This document shows, piece after piece, positions 9,903-43,445 of a stretch of DNA of 64,000 nucleotides. Below the pieces are notes generated by a model, which did no database searches, had not been told where the DNA came from, and was given only the letters and a program-made list of their open reading frames with translations. The translations under genes and the position numbers were made by a program. The stretch is from an uncultured Gammaproteobacteria bacterium (GTDB taxonomy: Bacteria > Pseudomonadota > Gammaproteobacteria > JACCXJ01): assembly GCA_963764725.1 (NCBI GenBank), contig CAVXTM010000018.1, positions 416,001 to 480,000 of the forward strand, in the 5' to 3' direction. The first letter of the stretch is position 1. Every line of letters starts with the position of its first letter.

Positions 9903-11403
9903 GGTCCTCGGGCTTGCGTACCCGATCAAGAAGGTATTGAACGAGCAGCGGCACCGGACGGCCCGTCGCGCCTTTCTTGTTTCCCGCACGCCACGCGGTT
10001 CCGGCAATGTCCAAGTGCGCCCATTTCAAATCCTTAGCAAAGCGCGCGAGAAAGCACGCAGCGGTAATACTACCGGCCTCGCGGCCGCCGACATTGGCGA
10101 AGTCCGCGAAGGGACTGTCGAGCTGTTTCTGATAGTCCTCCCAAAGGGGCAGTTGCCAAGCCCGATCGCCGCTCTGCCCGCCCGCGGCGAGCAAGGCCTC
10201 GGCCAAGGGCTTGTGATTGCTCATCAGCCCCGAGGCGTGCTGACCCAACGCGACCACGCAGGCGCCCGTCAGAGTTGCGATATCGATGACCACCGCGGGC
10301 TTGAAGCGTCGAGCATAGGTCAAGGTATCACAAAGGACGAGCCGCCCTTCCGCGTCAGTGTTAAGGATTTCGATCGTCTGGCCCGAGAGGCTAGTCACAA
10401 TATCGCCAGGCTTCACCGCGTTACCGCCGGGCATGTTTTCCGTCGCCGGAATGAGGCCGATTAGGTTGAGCGGCAACTGCAGCTCGGCAATGGCCCGCAG
10501 TGTCCCAAGGACGCTGGCCGCGCCGCACATGTCGTATTTCATCTCATCCATGGCGGCGGCCGGCTTGATCGAAATGCCCCCCGAATCGAAGGTGATCCCC
10601 TTGCCTACCAAGGCTACCGGGGCTTGCGCCGCGCGCCCTCCCCGATACTGCACGATGATCAGCGCCGGTGGCTCGCGGCTGCCGCGAGCCACCGCCAGGA
10701 ACGCTCCCATCCTGAGCCTCTTGATCTGCGCTAGCCCCAAGACCTCAACCTTTAACGCCGCGTAGCGTTTCTGCAGCCGCCGCGCCTCATCCGCGAGATA
10801 GGCCGGGGTGCAATGGTTGCTCGGCAGATTGGCGAGATCTTTCGCCAAACGCACCCCCTCGGCGATGGCTCGGCCATCTCTTAATGCCTCTTCGGCGGCC
10901 GCCGCAGCGCTAGGGTTCGCGATCGCGACCCGCAGCGAGCGCAGAGCCGCCGCGGACGCGTCAGGCTTGCTTTTCAGCCGATCGAAGCGGTAGAGCGTGC
11001 TCTCGGCGGTTTCTACCAGTTGCCTCACCTTCCAGTCGAGGCCGCGATCCGGGATCGGGATCTCCGCGAGGTAGCTTGCAGCTTCCTTCACCCCCGCGTC
11101 GCTTAACGCCGTGACCGCCTTGGCGACGATCTCGCGATACTTGTTGTCGGACAACTCGTTCTCCGGCCCGCATCCGATCAGTAATATGCGCTCGGCCGCC
11201 GTACCGGGTATCTGATGCAGCATCAAGGTTTGGCCGCATCGCCCTTCGAGATCACCGCGCTTGATAATGCGGCTGATATAATGGTGACTGGCTTGGTCCA
11301 GTTGCGCCGCCGTCTCCGTAAGATTGCGCTTATTGAACACCCCGGCTACCACGCAAGGAACCCGCTGCGTATCTGGCGCACCGCTTATGATGGCGAACTC
11401 CAT
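9889..11403 (-). CDS. pepA: Leucyl aminopeptidase (M17)
   Basis: GKGITFDSGG, MKYDMCG, NTDAEGRL. Confidence 0.98.
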   Translation of the reverse strand: MEFAIISGAPDTQRVPCVVAGVFNKRNLTETAAQLDQASHHYISRIIKRGDLEGRCGQTLMLHQIPGTAAERILLIGCGPENELSDNKYREIVAKAVTALSDAGVKEAASYLAEIPIPDRGLDWKVRQLVETAESTLYRFDRLKSKPDASAAALRSLRVAIANPSAAAAAEEALRDGRAIAEGVRLAKDLANLPSNHCTPAYLADEARRLQKRYAALKVEVLGLAQIKRLRMGAFLAVARGSREPPALIIVQYRGGRAAQAPVALVGKGITFDSGGISIKPAAAMDEMKYDMCGAASVLGTLRAIAELQLPLNLIGLIPATENMPGGNAVKPGDIVTSLSGQTIEILNTDAEGRLVLCDTLTYARRFKPAVVIDIATLTGACVVALGQHASGLMSNHKPLAEALLAAGGQSGDRAWQLPLWEDYQKQLDSPFADFANVGGREAGSITAACFLARFAKDLKWAHLDIAGTAWRAGNKKGATGRPVPLLVQYLLDRVRKPEDHAPG

Positions 11404-11544
11404 AGCCCTCTTATGTTGTTATAGTTAACGCTTGAACCGAAATCGGCATTTCAATCGTAACGCGCGTATTATCAGGGTGAATCGCGTCTTAGCGAGCAAG
11501 TGTATTGTTATCGATACCGCAAAGCAAAGCGCACTAGCATCCTC

Positions 11545-12651
11545 ATGTTGTTAAACCGCTACCTCATCCGGGAGATCTTATTGTGGTTCGGGGCCGTGCA
11601 GCTCCTGCTATTACTCACCTACGCCAGCAGCCGCTTCGTGCAGTACCTGGCGACGGCTGCCGCCGGAAAAATCGACAGCGGACTGATCTTCGAGCTGCTG
11701 GCCTTAAAGATAGCGACCTCCTTGGTGCTGATGCTGCCCTTATGCCACTACATTAGCGTCTATGTCGCCTTGAACCGGCTGTCGCGCGACAACGAGCTTA
11801 TAGCCATCGCAAGTTTGGGCCTGGGCTCGCGGTTTCTTTTCGATACGGCGGCCAGGCTTGCCTTCACTGTGGCGTTCGTCGTCGCAATCCTCGCGCTCGC
11901 GGTCGCGCCGTGGGCAGAAGCGCGCTTGATTGAGGTGGAAAACCGGGCCAAATCGGAATCCGATCTGACCGGGATCACGCCGGGCCAATTCAAGAATTTC
12001 AATGAGGGTAACCGCATCCTTTATGTGGAGCGACTGTCTCCCGACAAGCGCAGCATGTCCAATGTGTTCCTGCAAGGGCGGCAAGACGGCCACCTCGGGG
12101 TGCTGTCCGCTGACCGAGCGGAAATCGAACTCGACCAGAAAACCGGATCTCGCTATGTGAACTTTTACGCCGGGCGCCGCTATATGGGCTCCCCGGGACG
12201 GCTCGATTATTCCATCGTCGAGTACGAGAAATACGGCGTGCGTATCGACCGCAGTGAGGCGGCGGATCGGAGCGCGAGCGTGAGCGCGGCGAGCACCGCA
12301 AGCTTGTGGTCGGCCAACCGGCCTGAGGCGGCCGCTGAGTTACAGTGGCGGATCGCAATGCCGATCAGCACCGTGCTGTTGACGCTCCTCGCGGTGGCGC
12401 TGGTGCGAGCGGCATCCGACCAGAACCGGATCCTCGGGCTCTTGACCGCGGTCTTGATTTATTTCACTTACAGCAATCTCTTGGGGATTGCGAAGTCCTT
12501 GGCCAAGCAGGGCGCCGTGCCTGTGTATCTGGGTTTATGGTGGGTGCATGCGCTCTTAGGTCTTGTGATCCTCGCGCTCCTTGGTTATCCGCTCCTGCGC
12601 AAGTGGTGGGCGCGGCGGCAACGAGCACCAACGCTAGTGCGGCTGAGCTGA
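11545..12651 (+). CDS. lptF: LPS export ABC permease LptF
   Basis: Start MLLNRYLIREI, 3 TM + periplasmic domain + 3 TM, AELQWRI motif, divergent from pepA. Confidence 0.92.
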   Translation: MLLNRYLIREILLWFGAVQLLLLLTYASSRFVQYLATAAAGKIDSGLIFELLALKIATSLVLMLPLCHYISVYVALNRLSRDNELIAIASLGLGSRFLFDTAARLAFTVAFVVAILALAVAPWAEARLIEVENRAKSESDLTGITPGQFKNFNEGNRILYVERLSPDKRSMSNVFLQGRQDGHLGVLSADRAEIELDQKTGSRYVNFYAGRRYMGSPGRLDYSIVEYEKYGVRIDRSEAADRSASVSAASTASLWSANRPEAAAELQWRIAMPISTVLLTLLAVALVRAASDQNRILGLLTAVLIYFTYSNLLGIAKSLAKQGAVPVYLGLWWVHALLGLVILALLGYPLLRKWWARRQRAPTLVRLS

Positions 12652-13822: not shown

Positions 13823-15115
13823 ATGACTGACAGTAACCCCGTCTGGAACGACGATTGGATGACATCGCAGAAAAATTTTTGGGACGCCTGGTCACACATT
13901 CTAAGCCAATCCATGGAGCCATCGCTTAGCTCCCAAGCATTCGCTGTTCCGTGGACGGCAGCTTTGGATCTGTGGGCCAAGACCGCAGCGCCTTCCGCTC
14001 CGGCGGCTCGAGAGGATTTTTTTCAAAGTATTGTGCGGCAAGGAAGAACCTTTCTGCGACTCGGAGAGGAGCTCAGCAAACTGACACGCAACCTGGCCGA
14101 GGGCGCGCGAGCCGGAGCGAACTGGAAGGATGTGCTCGCGGCGAAGTTCAACGAACTGAAAGCGGGTTTCACTCACGGCAGTGCGTCCGACGTGACCAGC
14201 ACGCTGCGCGGTCTGCTACCTTTTTTCGAAATGCCGATGGACACCTGGGCGCGCATGTTCTCGAGCAACTCGTTGCTGCCCGGTGATTTCCTGCGGTCGA
14301 AATCCGAGGGTTTGGCCGGCGTCCCGGGCCAGATCCACGAACGCATGGATCAGTTCTTGTCGATCCCTGCGGTCGGTTATATGCGTGAATGGCAAGAGCA
14401 GACGCAGGGTGGCGTGCGTCTCACCATGGATTACCAACAGGCGCTGCAGGAATACGTGCATGCGCACGGACGGCTCGGCGTCGATGCACTCGAACGGCTG
14501 GCCGCCAAGATCATCGAACGCGCGGAGCAAGGCCGGGAAATCAATACCCTGCGAGAGGTCTATGATCTGTGGGTCGATTGTGGCGAAGAGGCGTACAACG
14601 CTCTTGTGTTCACGGAAGAATACGCGGACATTTACGCGCGGCTGGTCAACGCGCTAATGGCGTTGAAGCATCATAACCAGATCACCGTTGATGAAGTCGC
14701 AGGATCATTGAACTTGCCGACTCATCAAGAGATCACGACGCTGCAGCGGCGGCAGCAGGAGTTCCGGCGCGAGCTCGCGGGGTTCCGATCGCTGCTCGAT
14801 CCGAGCATGATGGAAGGAATGCAAGCGCCGTTAAGAGCGCAGGCAGAGGCGCTGAGCAGCCTCACGCAGTTGCGTACCCAAGGCGAAAGCATTGAGGACA
14901 TGAGAGAGAAGGTCACGGTGCTGGAACGCGACGTCGTCCGGTTGCTCAAGGAGCTGGCGTTGCTCCGCAACGGTACGGTACGCGAAGGCCGCGGCAAGCG
15001 AATCCCAGCGAAGAAGACGCCGTCCGCCGTGAGCGTGGTTGCCGCGGCCGGGCGGCCTAGGCCCACGCAGGCGGCGCGCGCCAGCGCTGCACAAAAGCGC
15101 GCCAAAGGAGACTAG
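13823..15115 (+). CDS. phaE: Class III PHA synthase subunit PhaE
   Basis: P.DTWARM, PAVGYMREWQ, LREVYDLWVDCGEEAY, LNLPT; directly upstream of phaC. Confidence 0.93.
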   Translation: MTDSNPVWNDDWMTSQKNFWDAWSHILSQSMEPSLSSQAFAVPWTAALDLWAKTAAPSAPAAREDFFQSIVRQGRTFLRLGEELSKLTRNLAEGARAGANWKDVLAAKFNELKAGFTHGSASDVTSTLRGLLPFFEMPMDTWARMFSSNSLLPGDFLRSKSEGLAGVPGQIHERMDQFLSIPAVGYMREWQEQTQGGVRLTMDYQQALQEYVHAHGRLGVDALERLAAKIIERAEQGREINTLREVYDLWVDCGEEAYNALVFTEEYADIYARLVNALMALKHHNQITVDEVAGSLNLPTHQEITTLQRRQQEFRRELAGFRSLLDPSMMEGMQAPLRAQAEALSSLTQLRTQGESIEDMREKVTVLERDVVRLLKELALLRNGTVREGRGKRIPAKKTPSAVSVVAAAGRPRPTQAARASAAQKRAKGD

Positions 15116-15118
15116 CTC

Positions 15119-16180
15119 ATGTTTCCATTTCAAATACGTCCCGATCAAGCTTTATCCGAAATCCAAGAGTTCGGGACTAAGCTCAGCCGAGGTTTACAAA
15201 CGCTGAACGAAATCGGTGATATCGACGTCGGGTGTACGGAAAAAGAGGCTATTTACACCGAAGACAAGCTCACGCTCTACCGGTTCAAGCCGCTCGTGGA
15301 GAAGCTGAACCCGGTGCCGGTGCTGATCGTATACGCACTTGTTAACCGCCCTTACATGGCGGATCTACAGAAGAACCGCTCGCTCGTGCGCGGACTTCTG
15401 GCGGGCGGCCTCGATGTCTATTTGATCGACTGGGGTTATCCCGATAGCGCCGATCGGTTTTTATCATTAAACGATTACATCAACGGTTATACCGATCGCT
15501 GTGTGGAGGTGCTCAGGAAACGGCATAGCCTGAACAAGATTAATCTCTTAGGGATCTGCCAGGGAGGAACGTTTAGCCTTTGCTATAGCGCGATGCATGC
15601 CGACAAAGTGAGGAATCTCATTACCACCGTGACACCGGTCGATTTCCACACGCCCCAGGATTTGCTCAGCCATTGGGTGCGGAAGGTAAACATCGATCTG
15701 CTGGCGGACACCATGGGTAATATCCCGGGCGAGATGCTGAACTGGACTTTTCTTTCGCTCAAACCGTTTCGGCTTTCGGGGCAAAAATACCTCGATATGG
15801 TCAACACCCTGGACGATCCGGTCCTGTGCAAGAATTTCATCCGCATGGAGAAGTGGATCTTCGATAGCCCCGACCAAGCGGGGGAAGCATTCCGGGAGTT
15901 TATCAAGCATTTTTATCAGAATAACGAGCTGATTAAAGGCGAGGTGATGATCGGTGAAAAGAACGTCGATCTCGAAAACATCACCATGCCGGTGCTCAAC
16001 ATCTTCGCCACCGACGACCACCTGGTCCCACCCGCCGCTTCGAAGGCGTTAAGGAAATACGTGGGAAGCGCGGATTATTCGGAGATCGAATTTCCCGGCG
16101 GACACATCGGGATCTACGTGAGCGGAAAAGCGCAGCAGATGATTCCCCCCTCGGTCGCGTCCTGGCTCGCCGCCCGGTAA
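15119..16180 (+). CDS. phaC: Class III PHA synthase subunit PhaC
   Basis: 353 aa; VYALVNRPY, lipase box GICQGG, DHLVPP, GGHIG. Confidence 0.97.
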   Translation: MFPFQIRPDQALSEIQEFGTKLSRGLQTLNEIGDIDVGCTEKEAIYTEDKLTLYRFKPLVEKLNPVPVLIVYALVNRPYMADLQKNRSLVRGLLAGGLDVYLIDWGYPDSADRFLSLNDYINGYTDRCVEVLRKRHSLNKINLLGICQGGTFSLCYSAMHADKVRNLITTVTPVDFHTPQDLLSHWVRKVNIDLLADTMGNIPGEMLNWTFLSLKPFRLSGQKYLDMVNTLDDPVLCKNFIRMEKWIFDSPDQAGEAFREFIKHFYQNNELIKGEVMIGEKNVDLENITMPVLNIFATDDHLVPPAASKALRKYVGSADYSEIEFPGGHIGIYVSGKAQQMIPPSVASWLAAR

Positions 16181-16250: not shown

Positions 16251-16619
16251 TTATTTCTTTACCGCGAGCGCGGCTTTCTTTACCGGCGCGGTTCCGTTCT
16301 CCTGGGTCTTCTCGAACCAAGCCGCCACCTCATCCTTGGAATCCGTCATGATCTCGGTGGTTTTACGCAGAGCGTCAAGCATCTTCTCATTGTATTCGGT
16401 TATGAGCTTGGTTTGGCCCGCCAAGAGATCCTTATAACCCTTCGATTCGGTCATCAAGGTGACGGCCTTGATACCGGTATCGACATAGGTGTTTACCAAG
16501 CCGAGTTGCTGTTCACCTATCTTCTCAAACGTCTTGGTGCTGATCTCGCCTAGCTCCTTTAGAGAAGCAAAGCAGGTGCTGCCAAACTGAGCCCAAGGCT
16601 CCACAGTTTCAAATTGCAT
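16251..16619 (-). CDS. phaP: Phasin (PHA granule protein)
   Basis: 122 aa amphipathic helical protein, S-L-K-E-L...E-K...QQ pattern, in PHA cluster, paralogous to its neighbour. Confidence 0.85.
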   Translation of the reverse strand: MQFETVEPWAQFGSTCFASLKELGEISTKTFEKIGEQQLGLVNTYVDTGIKAVTLMTESKGYKDLLAGQTKLITEYNEKMLDALRKTTEIMTDSKDEVAAWFEKTQENGTAPVKKAALAVKK

Positions 16620-16791: not shown

Positions 16792-17157
16792 CTATTTGCC
16801 CTTCACGGGTTTGCCGGCAAACGGCGCCACGGTTTTCTCCATGCCTCGTTCCGCCCACGCGCTCAGCTCATTCTTGCACTCGCTGAGTAGATCGTTGGTC
16901 CCGCGGACGATCTCGACGAACTTGGCACCGTATTCGGAGGCCAGAGCGGCTTGATGCTCCAGTAAGTCCTTCGGGTCCTTAGAGATGCTAAGCAAATTCA
17001 CTTCCTTGGCGCTTGCCTCGAGACAAGTGCTGAGGATTGCTTCCTGCTGCGCCGTCATTTTCTCCACTAGCTTGGCATTGATTGCACCAAGCTCTTTCAT
17101 GGACTCGAGGGCGCTTCTGCTCAGGGCGGCCCATTGGTCGATCATTTCTTGCTGCAT
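16792..17157 (-). CDS. phaP: Phasin paralog
   Basis: Starts MQQEMIDQW behind a GGAG SD; aligns without gaps to the other phasin (W9, S19, KELG, QQ, KDLL..Q). Confidence 0.85.
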   Translation of the reverse strand: MQQEMIDQWAALSRSALESMKELGAINAKLVEKMTAQQEAILSTCLEASAKEVNLLSISKDPKDLLEHQAALASEYGAKFVEIVRGTNDLLSECKNELSAWAERGMEKTVAPFAGKPVKGK

Positions 17158-17376: not shown

Positions 17377-19227
17377 ATGACGATAACACACGACGGAGCA
17401 AAGAGGACAAAAAACAAACGGCTTTTGCAATGGGTGGACGAGATTGCCGGCCTTTGCAATCCCGATCGCATCTATTGGTGTGATGGTTCCCAGAAGGAAT
17501 ACGATCGCTTATGCGAAGAGATGGTGCAAAAAGGAACCTTTATCCGCTTAAACCCGAAGAAGAGACCGAATAGCTTTCTCGCGCGTTCTCACCCGACCGA
17601 TGTTGCGCGCGTCGAGGACCGAACCTACATCTGCAGCGAAAAGCAGGAAAACGCCGGCCCCACGAATAACTGGATGGAGCCGCAAAAGATGCGGGGCATA
17701 CTCCGCGAATTATTCGAGGGCTGTATGCGCGGCCGCACGATGTATGTGATTCCCTTCAGCATGGGACCCATAGGTTCGCACATCTCCCATATCGGGGTTG
17801 AGATCAGCGATTCCGCCTATGTCGCGGTGAATCAGCGCATCATGACTCGCATGGGACAGACCGCTCTCGATGTGTTGGGGCCAGACGGCCACTTCGTGCC
17901 GTGCGTGCATTCGATCGGCGCACCCTTGCAGCCGCATCAGGAAGACACAGTGTGGCCGTGCAACGACACCAAATACATCACGCACTTTCCCGAAACGCGC
18001 GAAATCTGGTCATTCGGGAGCGGCTACGGCGGAAATGCCTTACTCGGTAAGAAGTGTTTCGCGCTGCGAATCGCATCGGTGATGGCGCGCGACCAAGGCT
18101 GGCTGGCCGAGCACATGCTGATCCTCGGCGTCGAATCCCCGGCCGGCGAGAAGACCTACGTGTCGGCAGCCTTTCCGAGCGCCTGTGGTAAGACAAACTT
18201 TGCGATGCTGATCCCGCCTAAGGCTTTGGATGGATGGAAAGTGACGACCATCGGGGATGATATCGCGTGGATCAAACCCGGGGCGGACGGCCGCTTTTAT
18301 GCCATTAATCCCGAAGCGGGGTATTTCGGCGTGGCGCCCGGCACGAACATGGATTCGAATCCCAATGCCATGTTAACCCTGAAAGAGAACTGCATTTACA
18401 GTAACGTCGCGCTGACCGACAACGGCGACGTTTGGTGGGAAGGGATGACGAAGGAGCCGCCCGCGCATCTCATCGATTGGAAAGGAAACGACTGGACACC
18501 CGGTAGCGGCACGCCGGCGGCGCATCCGAACGCGCGCTTCACGGCACCGGCCCATCAGTGCCCGTCGATCGATCCGAGTTGGGAGGACCCGAACGGCGTA
18601 CCCATCAGCGCCTTCATCTTCGGCGGGCGTATTAGTAAGAACTTCCCTCTGGTTCTGCAAGCATACGACTGGGAACATGGGGTCTATCTCGCGGCGACCA
18701 TGGGGTCGGAAGCGACCGCCGCCGCGGTAGGCCAGGCCGGGATGCGGCGCGATCCGATGGCGATGCTCCCGTTCTGCGGTTACAACATGGCGGATTACTG
18801 GAAGCATTGGCTGCGTATTGGCCGTCAGCGCGTCGCCACCCCGCCCTTGGTGTTCCGTGTCAACTGGTTCCGTAAAGATGACAAGGGCAAGTTCATCTGG
18901 CCGGGCTACGGTGAAAACATGCGCGCGCTGAAATGGGTGGTCGACCGCTGCCACGGGCGGGCGCGGGGCGTCGAGAGCCCCCTCGGGTGGGTGCCGCCGT
19001 TCGAGGAATTGGTCTTGGACGGTATCGAGTTTTCAAAGGATCGGTTCTACGAGATCATGAACATCGACCGGGAACGGGCGCGGCAGGAAGCGAACGATCA
19101 AGAGGAGCTGTTCACGCGTTTCGGAGATCATCTCCCGCGCGAAATGGAAATCGAGAGAGAGTTACTGCTATCGCGCCTCTATCACTCACCTACCGTTTGG
19201 GATTTGAGCTTCGCTAGCGCTACATAA
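17377..19227 (+). CDS. pckG: Phosphoenolpyruvate carboxykinase (GTP)
   Basis: [41 protein letters not shown]. Confidence 0.97.
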
Positions 19228-19283: not shown

Positions 19284-20231
19284 TTACGCGGTTAACCGCC
19301 GGCCGTTGACCGCGATGTCGGTTCCAGTGATATACCCGCTCGTGTCCGCCGCGAGAAAGTCGACCACGGCGGCGATCTCATCAGGCTCACCCCATCGCCC
19401 CTTGGCTAGCTTCGCCTTAATCGCTTTGCGGATTTCATCCGGGATTTCCGCCACCATGCCGGTCGCGCCATGTCCGGGTGATACGGCATTAACGGTGATC
19501 CCCTGATCCCCTAGCTCCCGAGCCAGAGATTTGGTAAAACCCAGCATACCCGCCTTGGCGGCCGCAATGTCGGTTTGCCCAAATTGCCCTGGAGGCCCGT
19601 TAACCGAGGAGATATTGATTATCCGGCCGAAGTGCCGTTCCTCCATCGCCGCGATCACAGTACGCGTAACATTGAATACGCTGTCGAGATAGGTATCCAG
19701 AACTGTCTGCCAGTTCTCGTGTTTACTGTCGTTGCGGGTGATGCCGACGCAGTTGACCAAGATATCGACGTGACCGTAGCGACCTTCGATCCAGCTCGCC
19801 ATACTGGCGCAATCATCGCATCGCGCGACATCACACGCGACGATACCAAGTTCATAGCCGCCCCTACGTCTCGCCGCTTGCCATTGGCGCGCGGCAGCCG
19901 ATTCGTGACGAGGATACGTGGCGATGACTAAGAAACCCGCATCCGCGAGCCGCAGACAAATCGCCGTTCCGATGTTTCCAGTTCCGCCGGTGACTAAAGC
20001 TACTCGCCCGCCGTGCTGCAACCGGTGGTACGGGCGCAACTGCGTCCAGGCGTGGCGCAGCCCCGCGGCAGCCGCGGAAACGCTCCGATTCCACTCGTCC
20101 CGCTGACGTGTTGCTAAAGCATCGAGGGATTGCCCGAACGCCGTGGCGACCTGGACGCTCGAGGTGAACGCCCTGGTCCAGGCACGGCTCCATACTTCCA
20201 GAACTTTGAGTGACATCGTGTCGAGAAACAT
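19284..20231 (-). CDS. Degenerate acetoacetyl-CoA-reductase-like SDR with phasin-like N-terminal extension (alternative start 20216)
   Basis: Clear PhaB paralog ([36 protein letters not shown]), but YxxxK is replaced by IAAAK. Confidence 0.8.
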   Translation of the reverse strand: MFLDTMSLKVLEVWSRAWTRAFTSSVQVATAFGQSLDALATRQRDEWNRSVSAAAAGLRHAWTQLRPYHRLQHGGRVALVTGGTGNIGTAICLRLADAGFLVIATYPRHESAAARQWQAARRRGGYELGIVACDVARCDDCASMASWIEGRYGHVDILVNCVGITRNDSKHENWQTVLDTYLDSVFNVTRTVIAAMEERHFGRIINISSVNGPPGQFGQTDIAAAKAGMLGFTKSLARELGDQGITVNAVSPGHGATGMVAEIPDEIRKAIKAKLAKGRWGEPDEIAAVVDFLAADTSGYITGTDIAVNGRRLTA

Positions 20232-20292
20232 AGTGGTAACGCCTCCCGATTTTTCGTTAGTTTTCTGCGTCGATGGTTGAGCTTGAGGTTGA

Positions 20293-20826
20293 TTATTCTT
20301 GCTTCTTACCCGCCTCGCCTTCGCTCTCAGTGGGATTAGTCATGCCGGCGGCCCGGAACAAGCTGTCTTGCATTTTCTTGAAGACGTCCAGGTTTCGTTG
20401 GGTGATCTCTGTCAAGGCCGTGAGGGGATTGTTTTTAACAGCGTCGCTAATCTGCGTGTGGAATAGCTTCTGCTGTTCGGTAAACATCCCTAAGCTGCGT
20501 TCGATAAAATTGCCCGCTAAGCCTTGGACCGCGTCGCCGTAGAAACGGATAATTCGGAGGAGAGCATGGGTGGTGAACAACGGTTCCCCGTGGCCCTCTT
20601 CTTCGGTGATGATCTGCAGCAAGATGCTCCGGGTAATGTCTTCGCCGGTTTTTTGGTCGGTGACATAGAATTCAATTCCGGCCAACACTAGGGTCCGCAC
20701 ATCCGCGAGGGTGATGTACTTACTCTCGAAGGTGTCGTACAGGCGGCGATTCGGGTACTTTTTGATGACACGCTTGTCACCCGTCGCGGCACCCGTATCG
20801 CCGATGGAATTTGGATGCGTCGCCAT
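20293..20826 (-). CDS. phaR: PHA synthesis repressor PhaR
   Basis: IKKYPNRRLYDT...YITL...TGEDITRSILLQII; ATG at 20826 overlaps the phaB stop. Confidence 0.95.
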   Translation of the reverse strand: MATHPNSIGDTGAATGDKRVIKKYPNRRLYDTFESKYITLADVRTLVLAGIEFYVTDQKTGEDITRSILLQIITEEEGHGEPLFTTHALLRIIRFYGDAVQGLAGNFIERSLGMFTEQQKLFHTQISDAVKNNPLTALTEITQRNLDVFKKMQDSLFRAAGMTNPTESEGEAGKKQE

Positions 20827-21575
20827 CACATCATGTGCTGCCCGCCGTTGATGGAGAGATCGGCGCCGGTAATAAAACCGGCGCGGTCGGACACCAGAAA
20901 ATCGACTAAGTAAGCCACTTCTTCGGAAGTTCCTAAACGTCCCACGGGGATCTGGGCGATTATTTGATTGCGAATATTTTCCGGGACGGCCATCACCATC
21001 TCGGTGGCGATATATCCAGGTGAGACCGTGTTCACCGTGATCGCCTTGCGCGCGACTTCTTGCGCCAAGGACATGGTGAAACCGTGCATGCCGGCCTTGG
21101 ACGCCGTGTAGTTGCTTTGCCCGATCTGACCTTTCTGGCCGTTGATGGACGAGATATTGATGATCCGCCCGTGGCCACGGTCGATCATCCCCGAAATGAC
21201 GTGCCGCGTGACATTGAAGACACTGTCGAGGTTGGTCCGCAGGACCGTGTCCCATTGCTCTTTGCTCATCTTGCGTAGCGTCACATCCAGCGTGATGCCC
21301 GCGTTATTGACGAGGATATCGATGGGGCCCGGGTCTTTTTCGATCTCGCCGATCATCCAACCGCAGGCGTCGAAGTCCGTCACATCGACACGGTAGGCCT
21401 TAAAATCGTAGCCTTCGGCGCGCATCTCCGTCAACCACTTTTGGGCCTTTTGTTCATTGCGGTAATTGGTCGCGACCTTGGCGCCGGACACCGCAAGTTG
21501 TTTGCATATGGCCGCGCCGATCCCGCTCGTTCCCCCCGTGATCAGCGCTACGCGTCCGCTGAGATCTTTCGTCAT
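20826..21575 (-). CDS. phaB: Acetoacetyl-CoA reductase
   Basis: [30 protein letters not shown] with intact YxxxK. Confidence 0.96.
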
Positions 21576-21588
21576 TGGTCTTTCTCTT

Positions 21589-22770
21589 TCAACGCTCCAC
21601 CGCTAGAGCAACGCCTTGGCCACCGCCGATGCATAAGGTCGCAAGGCCCTTGCGCACATCGCGTCGGATCATCTCGTACACCAAAGAAACCAAGACACGC
21701 GCCCCGGAGGCACCGATGGGGTGGCCGAGCGCAATCGCGCCGCCGTTGACGTTCACTTTGGCGACATCCCAACCGATATCCCGGTTCACCGAAAGCGCCT
21801 GGGCCGCAAAGGCCTCGTTCGCCTCGATAAGATCGAGATCCTGAACCTTCCATCCGGCTTTCCGCAAGCACCGTTGCGTCGCGGGCGTCGGACCTGTCCC
21901 CATTATGGCAGGATCGACGCCGGCCGTGGCATAAGCAACAATTCGCGCCAGCGGTGACAGACCCAGGGCCTTGGCCTTGCTTTCGGTGGTGATAATCACG
22001 CCGGCCGCGCCGTCATTGATTCCGGAAGCATTGCCTGCCGTGACCGAGCCCTCCCGGTCGAAGGCGGGTTTCAGTTTGCCCAGGGCTTCGGCAGTCGTGC
22101 CGTGACGGGGAAACTCATCGGTATCGAAGATGATCGGGTTGCCTTTCTTTTGCGGAATTTCGACGGGGATGATTTCCTTCGCGAAACGCCCCGCCTTCTG
22201 AGCGGCCTCCGCCTTTTGCTGCGAGAGCGCCGCGAACGCGTCCTGTTCCTCGCGCGAGATACCGTACTTCTTAACGATGTTTTCGGCGGTCATGCCCATG
22301 TGATAATCATTAAAAACATCCCATAAGCCGTCGTTGATCATCGTATCGACTAACGTCCATTCGCCCATCTTCTTGCCGGTGCGTGAGGCGGGGAGCACGT
22401 GCGGCGTTAGACTCATATTTTCTTGACCCCCGGCCACCACTAGCTCGGCATCACCGGCGCGAATCGATTGCGCGGCCAAAGCCACCGCTTTGAGCCCGCT
22501 GCCGCATACCTTGTTGATGGTCATACACGGCACCGAGTGCGGCAGACCCGCGCCCAGTGCCGCCTGCCGCGCCGGGTTCATGCCGACGCCCGCGGTCAGG
22601 ACCTGGCCTAAGATCACTTCCTCAATGTCCTCGGGCTTAATCCCGGTCTTGGACAAGAGCGCAGAGATGACCTTCGCGCCCAAGGTTGCCGCCGGAATAG
22701 TCGCGAGCGTTCCCCCAAAGGTTCCTATAGCCGTCCGACCGGCGGCCACGATAACTACGTTTTCAGCCAT
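21589..22770 (-). CDS. phaA: Acetyl-CoA acetyltransferase (beta-ketothiolase)
   Basis: [28 protein letters not shown]. Confidence 0.97.
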
Positions 22771-34400: not shown

Positions 34401-35990
34401 ATGAGCCTATTGATGGATGCCTTGAAAAAGGCCGAACAAGACAAGAAGAAAGCGGCGGAGGATCTACAAGCGAACCGGGCTGCAGGGGGGGAAGCCGAGC
34501 CGACCGCGGAACAGCACCCCTCGGAGGCCGCGGGCGCCGATAGGGTAACAGCGGCCGGAGCCGGCACGCACGATGAGCCAAGCCTCGACCCCGTTGCCGG
34601 AGCGGGTGCCGAGCCGGCCGGCGACACGAGTCAGGGTGAGCGGATACCGGCAGGCGAGGCCTCCGATTTAACGCTAGCGGGCGACCTGATAGACCTTTCG
34701 CTAGATGGTAGCTTGCCTCTTTCGGGATCATCGCCAAGCATCTCCGGGAGCGTCCCCCCGCCCGATAAAGAAACCACCCTGCCGTCGAAACGGGCTATCA
34801 ATGCATCGCTCAAGGATTATTTTGACTCCTCGCAGAGTCTCGACCGTTCGCGTTCGGAGCCGGGCTTATCCACGAGCGGCTCGTTCGGTACGGGTGACAC
34901 GATTGCCCGGGTTTCCGCGGATACCGTATTCACAGCGACCCAGCGTACGCGGATCACGAGCAGGGTCGGGCTAGGCCTTGTGGTGATTTTAGTGCTGAGC
35001 GCGTCATTAGGCGCGCTGTGGTTCTGGGGTCAGATCGAGCAAGGCAGCGCGGGTACTGACGACAACACGTTTAACCCGTCCCAAACCGCAATGAGCGCGT
35101 CTGGACCCGAGCGGCAGGCTCCCCCCGCAGCGGTGGTGTCTACCCCAACCGGCGTGAGCGACAGTTCCACTCCCCCGATCTCAGCTACTCCGACTGCGGA
35201 GGCCAGCAGCGGGTTAGCCGAGCCGGGGCAAGAACGAGACCTGCGGCCGGAAGCAACCCCGGCAGGCTCAAAGGCACCACTGGCTCCTTCCCCAACGGCG
35301 CTGCAGCAGCCTGCGCCGCCACCAATACGAGCAGGCTTACCGGCCAGTGTGGTGGGAATGGTTGCCGAACCGAGTGCGATCAAGATCACCAAGAGCCGCC
35401 GCGGTGATCTGGTCGATCCCGATATAACCGATGCCTATCGGGCTTACCAGCGCGGAGACTACCGCCGCGCCGAACACATCTATCGGACCGTCCTGAGCCG
35501 CCACCCGGAACAACGCGATGCGTTGTTGGGAATGGCCGCAGTCGCCGCGCGCCATGGCCAAACCGAGCGAGCCCAGCGCTATTACGGACGGCTACTTCAG
35601 ATCAACCCGCGCGATAGCGTGGCGCATGCCGCGCTTTCCGGCCTGCAAGGCGCGGCCGCCAACGAGCTTAGCGAGTCAAAGCTCAAACTCTTGCTCGACG
35701 AGACCCCCCAGGCGGGACAAATCCATTTCAGCCTCGGCAATCTGTATGCGCGGCAGGGACGCTGGGCCGAAGCCCAGGAAGCCTACTTCAAGGCCTTTGG
35801 CACCGAATCCCGGAATCCCGATTACGTATTCAATCTCGCGGTCAGCCTGGACCGGATGGGTCAGGCCAAGACGGCCGTGGGTTATTACCGCCAGGCGCTG
35901 GTTCTGGCCGACAGACGATCGGTTAACTTCAATACTTCCCAACTCCTCTCTAGAATACGAACTCTGTCTCATTCGCCAAGCAGTGAGTGA
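34401..35990 (+). CDS. Membrane-anchored TPR protein (MshN/GspB-like)
   Basis: MSLLMDALKKAE N-terminus, low-complexity linker, one TM, C-terminal TPRs. Confidence 0.8.
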   Translation: MSLLMDALKKAEQDKKKAAEDLQANRAAGGEAEPTAEQHPSEAAGADRVTAAGAGTHDEPSLDPVAGAGAEPAGDTSQGERIPAGEASDLTLAGDLIDLSLDGSLPLSGSSPSISGSVPPPDKETTLPSKRAINASLKDYFDSSQSLDRSRSEPGLSTSGSFGTGDTIARVSADTVFTATQRTRITSRVGLGLVVILVLSASLGALWFWGQIEQGSAGTDDNTFNPSQTAMSASGPERQAPPAAVVSTPTGVSDSSTPPISATPTAEASSGLAEPGQERDLRPEATPAGSKAPLAPSPTALQQPAPPPIRAGLPASVVGMVAEPSAIKITKSRRGDLVDPDITDAYRAYQRGDYRRAEHIYRTVLSRHPEQRDALLGMAAVAARHGQTERAQRYYGRLLQINPRDSVAHAALSGLQGAAANELSESKLKLLLDETPQAGQIHFSLGNLYARQGRWAEAQEAYFKAFGTESRNPDYVFNLAVSLDRMGQAKTAVGYYRQALVLADRRSVNFNTSQLLSRIRTLSHSPSSE

Positions 35991-37694
35991 ATGTGAATCT
36001 CATCAAGGAGCCGCCACGCCGCATCGGGGAACTGCTGGTACTTAAGGGAGTTGTCAGCGCGGATCAAGTACGGATTGCGTTAACGGAGCAGAAAAAGCGC
36101 AAGGAGCACCTCGGCAAAATTCTAGTCCGCCTCGGTTTTGCCACCGAGGCCGTCATTCGCGATGTCGTAGGCGGCGCGCTCGGTCAGCAGAGCGCGGATC
36201 TCTCCAATGTCGTCGTGGACGGTGAAGCCATCAAGCTCCTTCCCAAGGAAATGGCGAGGCGTTACCGCGTCCTTCCCCTCACCTACGATATACCCCGGAA
36301 CCGTTTGACGGTGGCGATGGCCGATACCTTTAACGTCGTCGCCCTGGACCAATTGAACGCACTGCTCGGCGGGGACGTCGAGATCGTCCCGCTATTGGCG
36401 GGCGAAAACGAAGTCGAGAAGGCCATCGATCAGTTCTATGGTTTCGAGCTATCCGTTCGACGGCATCTTGCAGGAGATCGAAACCGGGGAAATCGACTAC
36501 GATAGCCTCGACCCGGAAAGCGAGGCTTACAGTCAACCCATCGTGCGCTTGGTCAACGCGCTGCTTTCGGATGCGGTCAAGCGGGGCGCTTCCGACATCC
36601 ACTTCGAGCCCGAGCAGGGGTTTCTACGCTTTCGTTACCGTATCGACGGGGTATTACGCCAGGTGAGGAGTCTGCATAAAAACTATTGGTCCGCCATCGC
36701 GGTGCGCCTCAAGGTGATGGCGGACCTCGATATCGCGGAAACGCGCGCCCCCCAAGACGGCCGCATCTCCTTGACCTTATCCGGCCGGCCCATCGACTTT
36801 CGGGTCTCCTCGATGCCCACGGTTCACGGCGAGAACATCGTGTTGCGAGTCCTCGACCGTCAGAAGGGCCTCGTTCCCTTGGAGGAGCTCGGATTGGAGC
36901 CCGGCTTGTTGAACGTCCTGCGTATGATGGTGGCGCGACCTGAAGGAATTATACTCATCACGGGACCGACCGGGAGCGGGAAAACCACCACGCTGTATTC
37001 CTTGTTGAATCACCTCAATACCGAATCCTCCAATATCATGACCTTGGAGGACCCGGTGGAATACCCCATGGTTTTGATTCGCCAAACCTCGGTGAATGAA
37101 TCGGTGCGGCTCGATTTTGCGACCGGGGTACGGTCGATGCTGCGGCAAGACCCGGACATTATTCTGGTCGGCGAGATCCGCGACGAGGATACGGCCTCCA
37201 TGACCTTTCGCGCGGCAATGACCGGCCACCAAGTGTATTCGACCTTGCACACAAACTCATCAATCGGGGCCGTACCGAGGCTCCTCGACCTTGGGATCCG
37301 GCCCGATATCATGGCCGGTAATATCATCGGTATCATAGCGCAGCGCCTGGTGCGCAAACTTTGCGCCAAATGTAAGCAGCCCTACGCCCCCACCGATGTC
37401 GAGCGCCGCTTGCTCGGATTGCAAGCCGCGGGGCCTTTACTCTACCGCGCGAGTGGTTGCGGCTACTGCGAGCAGCAGGGGTATAAAGGCAGAACAGCCA
37501 TCATGGAGATCCTGAAATTCGATTCGGACCTGGACGAGCTGGTGGCCCGGGGAGCGACCATGCGCGACATCGCCCGGTGCGCATTGGACCGCGGCTTCAA
37601 GCCGCTGGCCGAGGCGGGGATCGCCCGCATCGTCGATGGTACGACGAGCCTGGACGAGGTGTCGCGCGTGGTTGACCTGACCGAACGCGTTTAA
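35987..37694 (+). pseudogene. GspE/PilB/MshE-type assembly ATPase split by one extra base near 36456-36458 (real lesion or sequencing error)
   Basis: N part RIGELLV..G....Q...AL..Q (MshEN-like); C part [22 protein letters not shown], CxxC..CxxC. Removing 1 nt from TCCGTTCGAC gives FYGFELSVDGILQEIE. Confidence 0.85.
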
Positions 37695-37696
37695 TC

Positions 37697-38899
37697 ATGG
37701 ATCTGTTCCACTATAAAGCCATCGACACCGGCGGCCGCATCATCAAGGGGCAGCTCGATGCGCTCAACCCGGTCGACCTGGAAGTGCGCCTTGGCCGCCT
37801 CGGATTGGAGCTGGTTAATTGCAAGGAAGTTCAAGCAACTCGTTTGTCGGCGGGCGCGGGTATCAAGCGCAAAGACTTGATTACGTTTTGCCTCCACCTC
37901 GAACAGCTCCTGGAGGCGGGGGTGCCGATGCTCGATGCATTGACGGATTTGCGCGATACGCTCGATCACCGCCGGTTTCAGGAAATAATCTCGGCCATGA
38001 TCGAGTCCATACAGGGAGGCAAGACTCTCTCGGAAGCCATGCGGGATTTTCCTTATGTGTTTAGCGCGGTGTTCGTCAATCTCATCAAGGCCGGCGAGAC
38101 CACGGGCCAGATCACCCGGGTGCTAAGAAACGTCATCGAAAACCTGAAGTGGCAGGACGAACAAGCGGCCTATACCAAGCGCCTTTTCATGTACCCGGCG
38201 TTTGTCGCCGTGGTCACGCTGGCGGCTTTGGTATTCTTGATGATTATGGTCGTCCCCGAGCTGCTAAAATTCGTTCAGACAATGGGACAGGAGCTACCGC
38301 TGCACACGCGGGTGCTGATCTTTACCTCCAATGCCGTAGTCGAGTTTTGGTATTTATTCGTCTCAGTACCTGTACTTATCATCAGCTTTATCCTGATCGC
38401 CATTAAGCGTAGCCCGAAGTTTCATGTCGCCTTCGATGCCGCCGTGCTGCGCATCCCGTTATTCGGGCAGATCATCAAGAAACTTATACTGACGCGTATA
38501 GCCAGCTACTTTGCCCTCATGTATGCTGCTGGGATCACGGTGTTGGAGTGTTTGAAAGTGGCCGAAGAGATCGCCGGCAACAAAGCTATCGAAGAGGCGC
38601 TTCGGAGCGCCGCCCGTCACATCAGCGACGGCGCCGGCCTAAGCAACAGTTTTGCGGCCACCGGCTTGTTTCCGGCCCTGGTATTGCGGATGCTCCGTGT
38701 GGGCGAGAGCACCGGGGGACTCGAGACTGCGTTGCAAAACGTAAGCTATTTTTATACCCGCGACGCACGGGAGTCGATCGAACGCTTGCAGACCATCATA
38801 CAACCGGCGATGACCCTGGTGCTCGGAGTGCTTCTAGGCTGGGTAGCCTTATCGGTGCTGGGCCCGATCTATGATCTCATCACTAAGATCAAGTTTTAG
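37697..38899 (+). CDS. GspF/PilC/MshG platform protein
   Basis: L..LL.AGV, AGE.TG, YPAFV, VGESTG.L; two T2SSF domains. Confidence 0.92.
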   Translation: MDLFHYKAIDTGGRIIKGQLDALNPVDLEVRLGRLGLELVNCKEVQATRLSAGAGIKRKDLITFCLHLEQLLEAGVPMLDALTDLRDTLDHRRFQEIISAMIESIQGGKTLSEAMRDFPYVFSAVFVNLIKAGETTGQITRVLRNVIENLKWQDEQAAYTKRLFMYPAFVAVVTLAALVFLMIMVVPELLKFVQTMGQELPLHTRVLIFTSNAVVEFWYLFVSVPVLIISFILIAIKRSPKFHVAFDAAVLRIPLFGQIIKKLILTRIASYFALMYAAGITVLECLKVAEEIAGNKAIEEALRSAARHISDGAGLSNSFAATGLFPALVLRMLRVGESTGGLETALQNVSYFYTRDARESIERLQTIIQPAMTLVLGVLLGWVALSVLGPIYDLITKIKF

Positions 38900-40463
38900 C
38901 TCCGCGCGGCGGCGCGCCCTCTGCATCGCCTCCGATGGCGTGTCGGTGTTTCAGTGGAAAAAGGGCGGTATCAGCGACCCCTTGGTGTTCGACGTCGATG
39001 ATGTCGGCCTAGCTAATTTTGAACGGTATCTGAGGGAAACGCCGAAGGTTCCCATCTATCTGATGGTCGACGTTGTCGAAGAAGAATACCGTCACGAAAG
39101 CATACCTCATCTCTACGGCTCCGACCGACAAGCGGTCATCGAGCGCAAGCAGGCCTGGTTCTTCCGCGGCACCCCTTATTGCCACGTCATGATGCAAGGG
39201 CGCGAAGCGGAGGGCCGCCGCGACGACCAGCTGATGTTCACCGCCATAATCAATCCGGACACCGTGACCCCCTGGGTCCGGCTTTGCACCCAAAACAAGG
39301 TTGCGTTGGCGGGCATCTACTCCTTGCCCATTCTAAGCGCTTCCCTTCTCGCCAAGATGAAGGTCCCTTCCCGCGATGTGCTGCTCGTAACCATGCAGGG
39401 ATCGAGCGGGCTGCGGCAGTCCTTTTTCAACGATCGGATACTCAAGATGAGCCGACTCGCCAAGCTGCCCAGGCTCGGCACGGTGCCCTTCGCCCAGTAT
39501 ATCCTCGGGGAGCTGGGGAAGTTCGAGCGCTACCTCACCAGCGTGCAACTCCTAAAAGCCGAGCTGCTCGATATCTATATTCTCGCCCATGGCGAATCAT
39601 TGGACCAGTTGGAGCAAGCGTGCCGCAACACGGAATCGGTACGTTATCACTTGCTGGACGTCGGCGATGTCGCAAGGCGTCTGGGGATCCGCGGAGTGCT
39701 CGCCACTCCGTTTAGCGATCATATCTTCGCGCACCTCTTGCTGCGCACCCAACCGAAGAACCATTTCGCCTCGAATGAAGAACGCCGTTACCATACGCTC
39801 TACCAAACCCGCGCTGGTCTGTATGCGGCGAGCGTTATCGCCTTGCTCGGCAGCGCTCTGTGGAGCTGGTTCAACCTGATAGATGGCGTGTCGGACAGGC
39901 AACTAGCTCGGGATAAGGCACACCAAGCCATGTACTTCCAAGCCCGCTACGATAGGGAAAAGGGACGGCTGCCCCCCACCGCGGTGAGCCCCGCCGATAT
40001 CAAGACCGCCGTGGACATCGTCGATACGCTGACTCAGCACAAAGCGGCGCCGCTCAGCCGGATGGGGGTCCTCGGACAGGCGCTCGCTGGTTTCCCCACC
40101 CTGCGACTGGAAGAAATCCAGTGGACCGTGAGCACCGATCCGCAAGCGGGTGCGGGCGCCGCCGCTCCGCAGGCGCCACCCGTTCCAGACACGGGTCAAG
40201 CGTCCAGTTACTATGAAATCGCGGAGATCACCGCCAGTGTCTATCCCTTCGACGGGAATTACCGGGCCGCTTTAGATCAGATCACTCGCTTCGGCGAGGT
40301 GTTGCGAGCGAAGTACCACGCCCATTCGGTCACGGCTGTGAACCTCCCGCTCGATACCCGCTCCAGCGCCCAAATTCGCGGTGATACGAAGGACGTGAAT
40401 ATACCCGAGAAAGCGGTATTCTCGTTGCGGGTCGTTTTCGGAGCGGAAGATGCGAACGCTTGA
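38871..40463 (+). CDS. PilM/PilN-like (GspL-like) alignment protein, apparently fused
   Basis: Large cytoplasmic domain, single TM, periplasmic domain; position in cluster. Confidence 0.55.
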   Translation: MISSLRSSFSSARRRALCIASDGVSVFQWKKGGISDPLVFDVDDVGLANFERYLRETPKVPIYLMVDVVEEEYRHESIPHLYGSDRQAVIERKQAWFFRGTPYCHVMMQGREAEGRRDDQLMFTAIINPDTVTPWVRLCTQNKVALAGIYSLPILSASLLAKMKVPSRDVLLVTMQGSSGLRQSFFNDRILKMSRLAKLPRLGTVPFAQYILGELGKFERYLTSVQLLKAELLDIYILAHGESLDQLEQACRNTESVRYHLLDVGDVARRLGIRGVLATPFSDHIFAHLLLRTQPKNHFASNEERRYHTLYQTRAGLYAASVIALLGSALWSWFNLIDGVSDRQLARDKAHQAMYFQARYDREKGRLPPTAVSPADIKTAVDIVDTLTQHKAAPLSRMGVLGQALAGFPTLRLEEIQWTVSTDPQAGAGAAAPQAPPVPDTGQASSYYEIAEITASVYPFDGNYRAALDQITRFGEVLRAKYHAHSVTAVNLPLDTRSSAQIRGDTKDVNIPEKAVFSLRVVFGAEDANA

Positions 40464-41070
40464 CATCGAATGGCCGCTGTTGAGCGCGCCGCTCGCGGCG
40501 CTGGTGGTAGCGTTCATCATCAGCGCCTTGCTTATCATTGCCAGCGGTTATTTTCGCGACCGGATGGCGGAGGATTATCGGCTCAACAACCAGAAGTTTC
40601 TGGAGGTAAGCCGCAAGTACCTATCCGTGGATCAGGACGAGCTTATCATCACAGAGTTGTATCCACGGTTCGTCAATCTTTACCGGCGCGGAATCGTCGG
40701 AGAAGAAAAGCGCTTGGATTGGGTGGAGATCCTAAAAAACGCAGTGGCGACACTTAAACTTCCCGGCCTGCGTTATGAGATCACCTCGCGCGAAGCTTAC
40801 ATCCCCGCATTCCCGCTCGTCCCCGGGCCTTATCAAATCAATACCAGCACAATGAAGCTGGAGCTCGGGTTGTTACACGAGAACGATCTCGCATCCTTGC
40901 TACAAGATCTCGACGAGAAGGCCCCGGGGATTTACACCGTCAAGAAATGTACGCTCAAGCGGGCACAAAATGTAGTCGCCGACAACCCCGATGCGGAAAA
41001 CGTCAAGGCGGAATGTGACTTGCTTTGGTTTACCTTGAGCCTCGCAAGCGGCGAGAAGATAAGTCTCTAG
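40450..41070 (+). CDS. PilO/GspM-like membrane protein
   Basis: N-terminal TM, coiled coil, short beta-rich C-domain (M.L.L.LLHE.DL..LL.DL). Confidence 0.55.
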   Translation: MRTLDIEWPLLSAPLAALVVAFIISALLIIASGYFRDRMAEDYRLNNQKFLEVSRKYLSVDQDELIITELYPRFVNLYRRGIVGEEKRLDWVEILKNAVATLKLPGLRYEITSREAYIPAFPLVPGPYQINTSTMKLELGLLHENDLASLLQDLDEKAPGIYTVKKCTLKRAQNVVADNPDAENVKAECDLLWFTLSLASGEKISL

Positions 41071-41079
41071 GGTCATCGC

Positions 41080-41703: not shown

Positions 41704-41858
41704 GTAGAGCAGGCTTTCCGCGGGCCACCGCCGGCCTACCATAAACCGGTGGGCTTCCAAGACGTTAGCGAGATCGGTTAACGCGCGCGTCTGGTCTTGT
41801 GATAACCGGTGCCCGGTTTCCATTGAATGATGATGTTGAAGCTCGGCTATCGCTATTT

Positions 41859-41976
41859 GTCATTCCAGCGCGAAAGCTGGAATCCTAGGGGTTCTTGATT
41901 ACGACTGGATGCCAGCTTTCCATCCTCGGGGCGCCAAGCAGGGCCGGTCCCTGGCCCTGGCTTTCGCTGGCATGAC
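41859..41976. repeat. GTCATTCC...CATGAC palindromic repeat with a nested insertion
   Basis: GTCATTCCAGCGCGAAAGCTGGAATC ... CTGGATGCCAGCTTTC[insert]GCTGGCATGAC. Confidence 0.7.
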
Positions 41977-41988
41977 GGGACCGGTTTT

Positions 41989-43359: not shown

Positions 43360-43445
43360 ATGACGTTCAAAAGACTAAATAGCGTGCGAAACAACTTAGG
43401 GTTTTCGCTATTACTTGCCGCACAGGGACAAAGAGAACCTCTTGA

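Follow-up and report, generated by a model that had tools for sequence, protein, structure and literature searches.

A long PhaB paralogue with a phasin-like N-terminal helix and no catalytic tyrosine: a candidate granule-coat pseudoenzyme of uncultured Gammaproteobacteria

The gene described here occupies positions 19284..20231 on the minus strand of a 64,000-nucleotide stretch of DNA from an uncultured gammaproteobacterium (GenBank assembly GCA_963764725.1, contig CAVXTM010000018.1, positions 416,001 to 480,000), referred to as the window, whose numbering is used throughout. The gene, referred to as the target, lies among genes for polyhydroxyalkanoate (PHA) metabolism. Its product places a phasin-like helical head before the body of an acetoacetyl-CoA reductase (PhaB) of the short-chain dehydrogenase/reductase (SDR) superfamily. 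The catalytic Tyr has been lost throughout the clade to which the target belongs, and the cofactor motif is damaged. The gene itself is real and conserved, and both of its parts are under purifying selection. With moderate confidence, the protein is read as a non-catalytic descendant of a wider group of long PhaBs, that is, as a pseudoenzyme of the granule coat whose SDR body would have a structural function or act as an adaptor. Its inactivity, its binding to granules, and any partner are predictions from sequence. The parts of the target are as follows.

19284..20231, minus strand: the target, a long Tyr-less PhaB paralogue of 315 residues (stop codon included in the coordinates), from the open reading frame (ORF) and its translation.
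20010..20231, minus strand: N-terminal extension, residues 1-74, predicted to be helical at 2-32 and 36-65.
20049..20216, minus strand: residues 6-61, aligned by hhalign to Phasin_2 helix 1 (phasin residues 1-56).
19287..20009, minus strand: PhaB-type SDR domain, residues 75-315, from Pfam, TIGR01829, matches in the PDB, and the AlphaFold2 (AF2) model.
19968..19991, minus strand: cofactor motif TGGTGNIG, residues 81-88, with the Asn86 codon at 19974-19976.
19716..19754, minus strand: NCVG (residues 160-163) and the shortened post-GITR loop, which is without four residues, from the alignment with the family.
19554..19571, minus strand: DIAAAK, residues 221-226, with Ile222 (19566-19568) in place of the catalytic Tyr and Lys226 kept.
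19467..19478, minus strand: PGHG, residues 252-255, replacing the family's PGYV/I, from the alignment with the family.

The target is one member of a much larger group. In a sample of 121 proteins, consisting of the query and its 120 best matches to the SDR part, an N-terminal extension of 63-101 residues is present in 102. The extensions can be aligned across the family and carry the signature W...S...AE...D...Q/H. A profile of the nine heads from the target clade matches the other 93 heads over 65 columns (hhalign probability 94%, P 1.1e-7). The long forms also group as one clade on the SDR columns (FastTree support 100, IQ-TREE SH-aLRT 99), with the target clade inside it. Thus, the target shares with the long PhaBs both a homologous helical extension and the placement of its SDR part. 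A few short forms nest within the long clade and may be truncated gene calls.

Nearly all of the 102 long PhaBs have the motifs NISS, TGGxGGIG, and NCAG. Because 91 of them also keep the catalytic Tyr in YxxxK, the long architecture as such is presumably that of an active reductase. Their sources are mostly uncultured Gammaproteobacteria and Chromatiales, with a single cultured organism, Methylohalomonas lacus. All named members are annotated as acetoacetyl-CoA reductase, for example WP_310521976.1 (P0028, from M. lacus) and MGQ0657350.1 (P0017, from a Chromatiales metagenome-assembled genome, MAG). Apparently, the long PhaBs are a widespread family that has not been described. A first-pass annotation of the window, made from the letters alone, had presented the target as an apparent phasin::pseudo-PhaB fusion. 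A one-off fusion of the local phasin with the local PhaB is at odds with so old and common an architecture. It had also proposed a search for homologues of the same build. Such homologues are plentiful, and the loss of Tyr is special to the target clade, apart from P0092 and, independently, P0054. As a separate observation, Cys92 and Cys141 are invariant across the 102 long PhaBs, Cys133 (in ECDV) is at least 90% conserved, and most members have the Cys of NCAG; a redox or metal role is conceivable. C92 and C141 are also present in the short PhaB of the window, where Val stands at the position of Cys133 and Asn in NNAG.

The Tyr-less clade comprises the window protein, eight database clusters (P0002-7, P0012, and P0013; 79-90% identity), and orthologues at three genome loci, L001-L003 (87-88%). 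When only the head was used as query, no more than six close relatives came up, with 79-85% identity and lengths of 314-334 residues. The closest named member comes from the MAG Chromatiales bacterium USCg_Taylor, a USCgamma methanotroph. L001-L003 are the only loci with the full architecture among 76 returned from 185,579 species genomes. The stem that leads to the clade within the long family is long (0.29 plus 0.34). Its sister is P0092 (SH-aLRT 96), a long-branched sequence from a 2.3-kb contig. In P0092, Ser, Tyr, and Lys are all gone (NVAA, RAAAA), yet the protein is full length and keeps the head (MLLDTMSLK). In another subclade, P0054 has independently replaced Tyr with Cys and Lys with Leu. 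Together, P0092 and P0054 indicate that catalytic residues have been lost at least twice in the long family.

Pfam assigns residues 76-310 to adh_short_C2 (1.1e-51) and adh_short (1.2e-45), as expected of an SDR Rossmann domain. The best relatives in the PDB are all acetoacetyl-CoA reductases (4k6c at 1.2e-61, 3gk3, 3vzp, and 4n5l), with matches covering residues 68-311 at E values of 1e-55 to 1e-62. The AF2 model has a predicted local distance difference test (pLDDT) value above 90 in the SDR core. The SDR part is 51% identical to the neighbouring short PhaB over 241 columns. The best NCBIfam model is TIGR01829 (acetoacetyl-CoA reductase), whose cut-off of 302.1 bits the target fails to reach with 281.7.

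The departures from the family fall at defined positions. In classical SDRs, the Tyr of YxxxK is the general acid. It is present in all 91 of the other long PhaBs and is replaced in every aligned clade member, by Val in 8/9 and by Ile in the target itself, where Ser208 and Lys226 stand with Ile222 in an incomplete Ser-Tyr-Lys set. The second Gly of the cofactor motif TGxxxGxG is Gly in 97% of those 91 proteins. In the clade, it is Asp in 7/9, Asn in 1/9 (the target, at residue 86), and Gly in 1/9. The PG motif is altered as well: Y254 and V255 are 99% and 90% conserved in the family and have become His and Gly, each in 7/9. Across the 91 Tyr-bearing proteins, 115 columns are at least 90% conserved, of which 89 are kept in at least eight of the nine clade members and 14 have changed. 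The 14 changes are G86D/N, A162V (9/9), deletion of the conserved Leu and Met of the xxLRKM loop (8-9/9), K214P, N221D (9/9), Y222V/I, Y254H, V255G, I275L, P276A, L280W, G311R, and L312R. By general SDR knowledge, the changed positions fall within the cofactor motif and the catalytic YxxxK, in the PG motif, and in the C-terminal tail.

Every sequence detail that the first-pass annotation had listed for this gene is borne out. The frame 19284..20231 is open on the minus strand, and 75 residues precede RVALVTGG in the target vs seven in the neighbouring PhaB. Relative to that PhaB, NYTASK has become DIAAAK with an ATT codon for Ile222 at 19566-19568, TGGTSGIG has become TGGTGNIG, and a gap of four to five residues follows GITR. 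The change from NNAG to NCVG is also real. Its interpretation as a lost motif does not hold, since NCxG is the norm of the long family. The suggestion that the protein might sense NAD(P)H is weakened by the Asp or Asn at the second Gly in 8/9 clade members. The phasin alignment had been counted from the Met at 20216. As the start of translation, the ATG at 20231 is likelier, with MFLDTM kept in relatives and a GGGAGG motif 10 nucleotides upstream.

Conservation of the Tyr loss and dN/dS below 1 had been named as tests of a maintained pseudoenzyme. Tyr is absent from all nine aligned clade members and from the three genome loci. Under the GY94 codon model, fitted to four sequences (the window and L001-L003), the whole target gene has a dN/dS (omega) of 0.336 (p 4e-12 vs omega=1). 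Each part gives a similar result: 0.375 for residues 1-74 (p 0.0034) and 0.338 for the SDR part (p 2e-9). Among the neighbours, omega is 0.134 for phaB, 0.105 for both phaA and phaC, 0.093 for phaR, 0.186 for phasin 2, 0.32 for phasin 1, and 0.335 for phaE, and pairwise Nei-Gojobori values agree. Thus, the target evolves in the manner of the structural granule proteins, unlike the enzymes, and clearly not neutrally. The idea of a dead yet maintained SDR stands for the motif losses and the selection; inactivity itself is a probable consequence deduced from the residues. Synteny is likewise preserved. The order phaA-phaB-phaR-target, PEPCK, phasin 2-phasin 1, phaC-phaE is kept in L001-L003, where the phaA orthologues occupy the same position and are 95-96% identical.

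The head was compared with the two phasins encoded in the window.

16251..16619, minus strand: phasin 1, 122 residues, Phasin_2 at 3.5e-17 and TIGR01841.
16792..17157, minus strand: phasin 2, 121 residues from a conserved MQ.E start, Phasin_2 at 5.7e-15, with homologues of 117-124 residues.

The gapless alignment that the first-pass annotation ran from Met6 (20216) onwards against phasin 1 was reproduced, with identities at M1, E7, W9, F17, S19, Q38, N43, and V46 (8/56). W9, S19, and Q38 also occur in phasin 2, as had been noted. In this fixed register, the BLOSUM62 score is 24. None of 20,000 shuffles reached it with phasin 1, and 0.03% did so with phasin 2. When all registers were allowed, the best gapless placement on phasin 2 was the same one (reached by 0.2% of 2,000 shuffles), and that on phasin 1 had a different offset.

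Profiles carry the comparison further. An alignment of 21 phasins was assembled from both window phasins, their orthologues in the three loci, and 13 database relatives. The head profile of the long family matches it over 57 columns with a probability of 96% (P 4.9e-9). With the full-length family alignment, the values are 91.6% and 8.2e-7, and residues 6-61 of the target fall on phasin residues 1-56 in the register already proposed. Reversed-profile controls gave P 0.34-0.35. When the columns of the phasin alignment were shuffled 100 times, the score did not exceed 16.8 vs 48.6 for the real one (minimum P 0.017). The head profile matched the profiles of PhaR, PhaE, PhaC, PhaA, PEPCK, and PhaB at P 0.03 at best (PhaR 0.036, PhaE 0.068). 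W9 is present in 79/93 other heads, 9/9 clade members, and 21/21 phasins, and S19 in 77/93, 8/9, and 21/21. The hydrophobic patterns of head and phasin correlate in register (r 0.53) vs at most 0.23 at shifts of 1-4.

The matched stretch corresponds to a structural unit of the phasin. AF2 models phasin 2 as a two-helix hairpin with helices at 2-58 and 62-113 (pLDDT 88.9), and its best fold match in the PDB is PhaP 5ip0 (template modelling score 0.66/0.73). Since helix 1 spans residues 2-58 and the match covers 1-56, the head matches helix 1. It is amphipathic, with a hydrophobic moment (muH) of ~0.53 over residues 5-26. At the level of family profiles, the head can be regarded as homologous to helix 1 of Phasin_2 phasins, although it does not attain the Pfam gathering score of that family. 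The claim of a phasin-like N-terminus therefore survives for helix 1 and by family profile; single-sequence searches do not recover it.

These observations fit the following scheme. In the long PhaBs generally, the phasin-like extension would hold the reductase at the surface of the polyhydroxybutyrate (PHB) granule, beside the synthase. In the lineage of the target, the reaction itself would be expected to fall to the short PhaB encoded next to phaA. The long copy is without its Tyr and, in most members, without the pyrophosphate-contacting Gly, part of the post-GITR loop, and the PGY motif. Under purifying selection it has retained its fold, the phasin-like helix, and most of the residues conserved in the family. 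Because these have been kept, the pseudoenzyme would still reach the granule coat, where its oligomeric SDR body could be a structural element or an adaptor. Most attractive is the idea of mixed oligomers that bring active PhaB to the granule. A more specific proposal goes further, with the long PhaBs as an enzyme-on-granule system and the USCgamma-like copy as a dead adaptor that sets the level of reductase at the granule, through oligomers with the short PhaB or through binding of acetoacetyl-CoA or 3HB-CoA. This proposal is a tentative one, possible without being probable.

Several findings, set out in this and the next two paragraphs, weigh against a granule-coat pseudoenzyme. Ser208, Lys226, and Asn187 of the catalytic tetrad are retained in the target, and P0003 has an intact TGGTGGIG; residual or altered chemistry may persist. 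The protein could then still be an enzyme that reduces acetoacetyl-CoA or some other compound, its mechanism being non-canonical or its cofactor geometry altered. The 89 retained columns of 115 and the purifying selection on the SDR part (omega 0.338) are compatible with this. Nevertheless, it is improbable: no Tyr lies near the Val or Ile that has replaced it in all nine clade members, and the 14 changes particular to the clade are grouped in the motifs for cofactor and substrate. Moreover, the sister P0092 is without Ser and Lys too, and the target falls below the TIGR01829 cut-off.

The omega of the target is ~2.5 times that of phaB, and the dN/dS estimates come from four sequences. Disrupted copies also exist in the databases. 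P0011 is frameshifted near the Gly motif, with its first ~40 residues in an alternative frame (that of window ORF 19864-20193), and P0145 (225 residues) and P0144 (71 residues) are pieces of a single copy on one 16.5-kb contig. These disruptions could be ongoing decay or MAG errors. A redundant long phaB drifting into a functionless pseudogene after the short phaB took over would account for them, as well as for the higher omega and the long clade stem. This, too, seems unlikely, because neutral evolution (omega=1) is rejected both for the whole gene and for its two domains. The window and L001-L003 have an open frame, as do 8/9 other clade clusters (P0002-7, P0012, and P0013), and indels are in frame. 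In addition, the changes gather at the active site instead of being evenly spread, and even the divergent P0092 is full length. A maintained pseudoenzyme thus remains the preferred reading of the body.

For the head, BLASTP returned no alignment to either phasin at E<=100. Pfam found no Phasin_2 in residues 1-75 at E<=1, the only match being RskA_N at 0.089, and Phasin_2 was outside the 25 families most matched by the 102 long PhaBs at E<=10. A phmmer search of residues 1-74 against 1.84 billion representatives returned four hits, its own family and three others; the three are repetitive proteins of 1,037-2,898 residues and were judged spurious by inspection. The AF2 model gives the head helices a pLDDT of 46-60. 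The phasin profile is shallow, its 21 sequences coming from one lineage (Neff ~2.3). The nine-sequence clade head profile taken alone does not match the phasins significantly (P 0.15), with the register identical, so the link to phasins is transitive, through the wider family. Finally, the head is half a phasin, helix 1 without helix 2, and not a complete domain of ~100 residues.

The head might instead be an amphipathic oligomerisation or partner helix, for PhaC/PhaE, for PhaR, or for bundling of the tetramer, its likeness to phasins reflecting ancestry or helical periodicity without shared function. The single helix of the hairpin favours this view, and the sources consulted did not establish which part of Phasin_2 phasins binds the polymer. 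It is nonetheless rather doubtful. Of the PHA proteins compared, only the phasins match the head profile (P is 0.036 for PhaR and 0.068 for PhaE), and this match survives shuffling. The helix is strongly amphipathic, and the genes sit in a PHA cluster with two phasins. A complex prediction for residues 1-74 with phasin 2 (score 0.02, mark 0.32) weighs neither way on binding. Separately, a possible PhaR relationship of the P0028 head (residues 1-92) was dropped, as the PHB_acc clusters of the protein atlas scored 0.75-0.76, below noise, and the hhalign P for PhaR was 0.036. On balance, a putative granule-binding helix is still favoured for the head.

The surrounding PHA genes are listed below.

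20242..20247, minus strand: GGGAGG, a motif resembling a ribosome-binding site, 10 nucleotides 5' of the ATG at 20231, read from the sequence.
20293..20826, minus strand: phaR, PHB_acc_N at 1.3e-28 and PHB_acc at 6e-13, separated from the target by 61 nucleotides.
20826..21575, minus strand: short canonical phaB, 249 residues, TIGR01829 at 371.8 bits, with NISS and YTASK and an intact Ser/Tyr/Lys site.
21589..22770, minus strand: phaA, a 393-residue ORF named after the first-pass annotation, with no family scan of this ORF.
13823..16180, plus strand: phaE-phaC, class III PHA synthase, TIGR01834 at 8.6e-66 and TIGR01836 at 3.7e-161.
17377..19227, convergent with the target: phosphoenolpyruvate carboxykinase (PEPCK), a 616-residue ORF named by inspection of its sequence, with no family scan.

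The target is the final gene of the row phaA-phaB-phaR-target, which lies on a single strand, as first described. The phaB stop and phaR start codons overlap as TGATG (20824-20828, minus strand), an arrangement that points to coupled translation in the phaA-phaB-phaR row. The composition of the target (GC content 0.598, third-position GC3 0.671) resembles that of its neighbours, which lends a recent transfer no support. A terminator scan and a fold of the region 3' of the target gave nothing convincing (z -0.19). In L001, a 602-residue ORF at 10222-12030 on the minus strand joins phaE residues 1-399 to phaC residues 188-353, reflecting either a deletion of ~220 codons across the junction or a MAG misassembly; in L002 and L003, both genes are intact.

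Elsewhere, the window carries ordinary chromosomal genes, such as lon, clpXP, tig, valS, citrate synthase, malate dehydrogenase, and pilus genes. Among the latter, a 172-residue ORF with an MshEN domain (35987-36505, plus strand) overlaps a 418-residue T2SSE ATPase ORF (36438-37694, plus strand) by 68 nucleotides in another frame. This appears to be an MshE/PilB-type pilus ATPase split by a frameshift or a sequencing error. Six ORFs of 206-530 residues lie beside the pilus ATPase and platform genes (38871-44213, plus strand, and 45597-46889, minus strand), and none of the six matched a Pfam family at E<=1e-8.

PhaB is usually treated as soluble. Two published accounts present PhaB as no more than the PHB-pathway reductase (PMC5658603, PMC13126070). 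If the proposed reading is true, the step that supplies monomers would, in many Gammaproteobacteria, take place at the granule itself by means of a phasin-derived helix on PhaB. This would bear on substrate channelling, on models of the granule proteome, and on engineered display with phasin tags, which nature would have mirrored. The Tyr-less clade would then be a clear example of how a metabolic enzyme can become a conserved granule protein without catalysis. Its members are found among relatives of the uncultured USCgamma methanotrophs, in which PHB metabolism genes have been noted (PMC13333085). Were the dead-adaptor proposal also correct, these atmospheric methane oxidisers would have a control point for carbon storage based on a pseudoenzyme. 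Databases label the clade 'acetoacetyl-CoA reductase' (sources of P0003) or 'SDR family oxidoreductase' (P0012), and with such labels pathway reconstructions would count a probably inactive enzyme.

In the full-text literature, with subscription-only papers outside its scope, no description was found of a phasin-like head on PhaB, of a PhaB pseudoenzyme, or of a long-PhaB subfamily, nor a usable numbering of the PhaB active site. Both the SDR part and the phasin part are of known kinds. Their combination and its dead derivative look new, and the combination extends far beyond this locus.

Canonical PhaBs (4k6c, 3gk3, 3vzp, 4n5l, and the short PhaB of the window) have in common with the target the SDR fold and TIGR01829 as the best family. 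They are ~245-270 residues long, have no helical head, and carry TGGxGGIG or TGGTSGIG together with YxxxK. Compared with them, the target has Asn86, Ile222, a shorter post-GITR loop, PGH for PGY, and a TIGR01829 score below the cut-off. The long PhaBs are much closer, with the same two-part architecture, a homologous head, NCxG, and 52-62% identity in the SDR part. They differ from the target clade in keeping Tyr (91/102) and, in 97% of those 91, Gly86. Non-catalytic or atypical SDRs are known to act as binding or sensor proteins, NmrA and HSCARG among them, with dinucleotide binding kept and the catalytic Tyr lost. The target resembles them in retaining a Rossmann body after the loss of Tyr. 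However, the Gly motif is damaged in 8/9 members of its clade, and the kinship is at the level of the superfamily only.

The target head aligns with residues 1-56 of Phasin_2 (PF09361) phasins and shares W9, S19, and the hydrophobic periodicity with them. Unlike them, it has no helix 2 and no Pfam match and is covalently joined to an SDR, and its granule binding is putative. The PhaP of Legionella pneumophila is described as two amphipathic helices (PMC11067923). PhaM and PhaF, according to a review, join phasin-like modules to a second part that attaches granules to the nucleoid (PMC5658603). The two proteins are comparable to the target by analogy only, as cases of a granule-binding helical module serving as an address label for another function. 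They belong to other phasin families, and their cargo is DNA-binding, in place of the SDR of the target.

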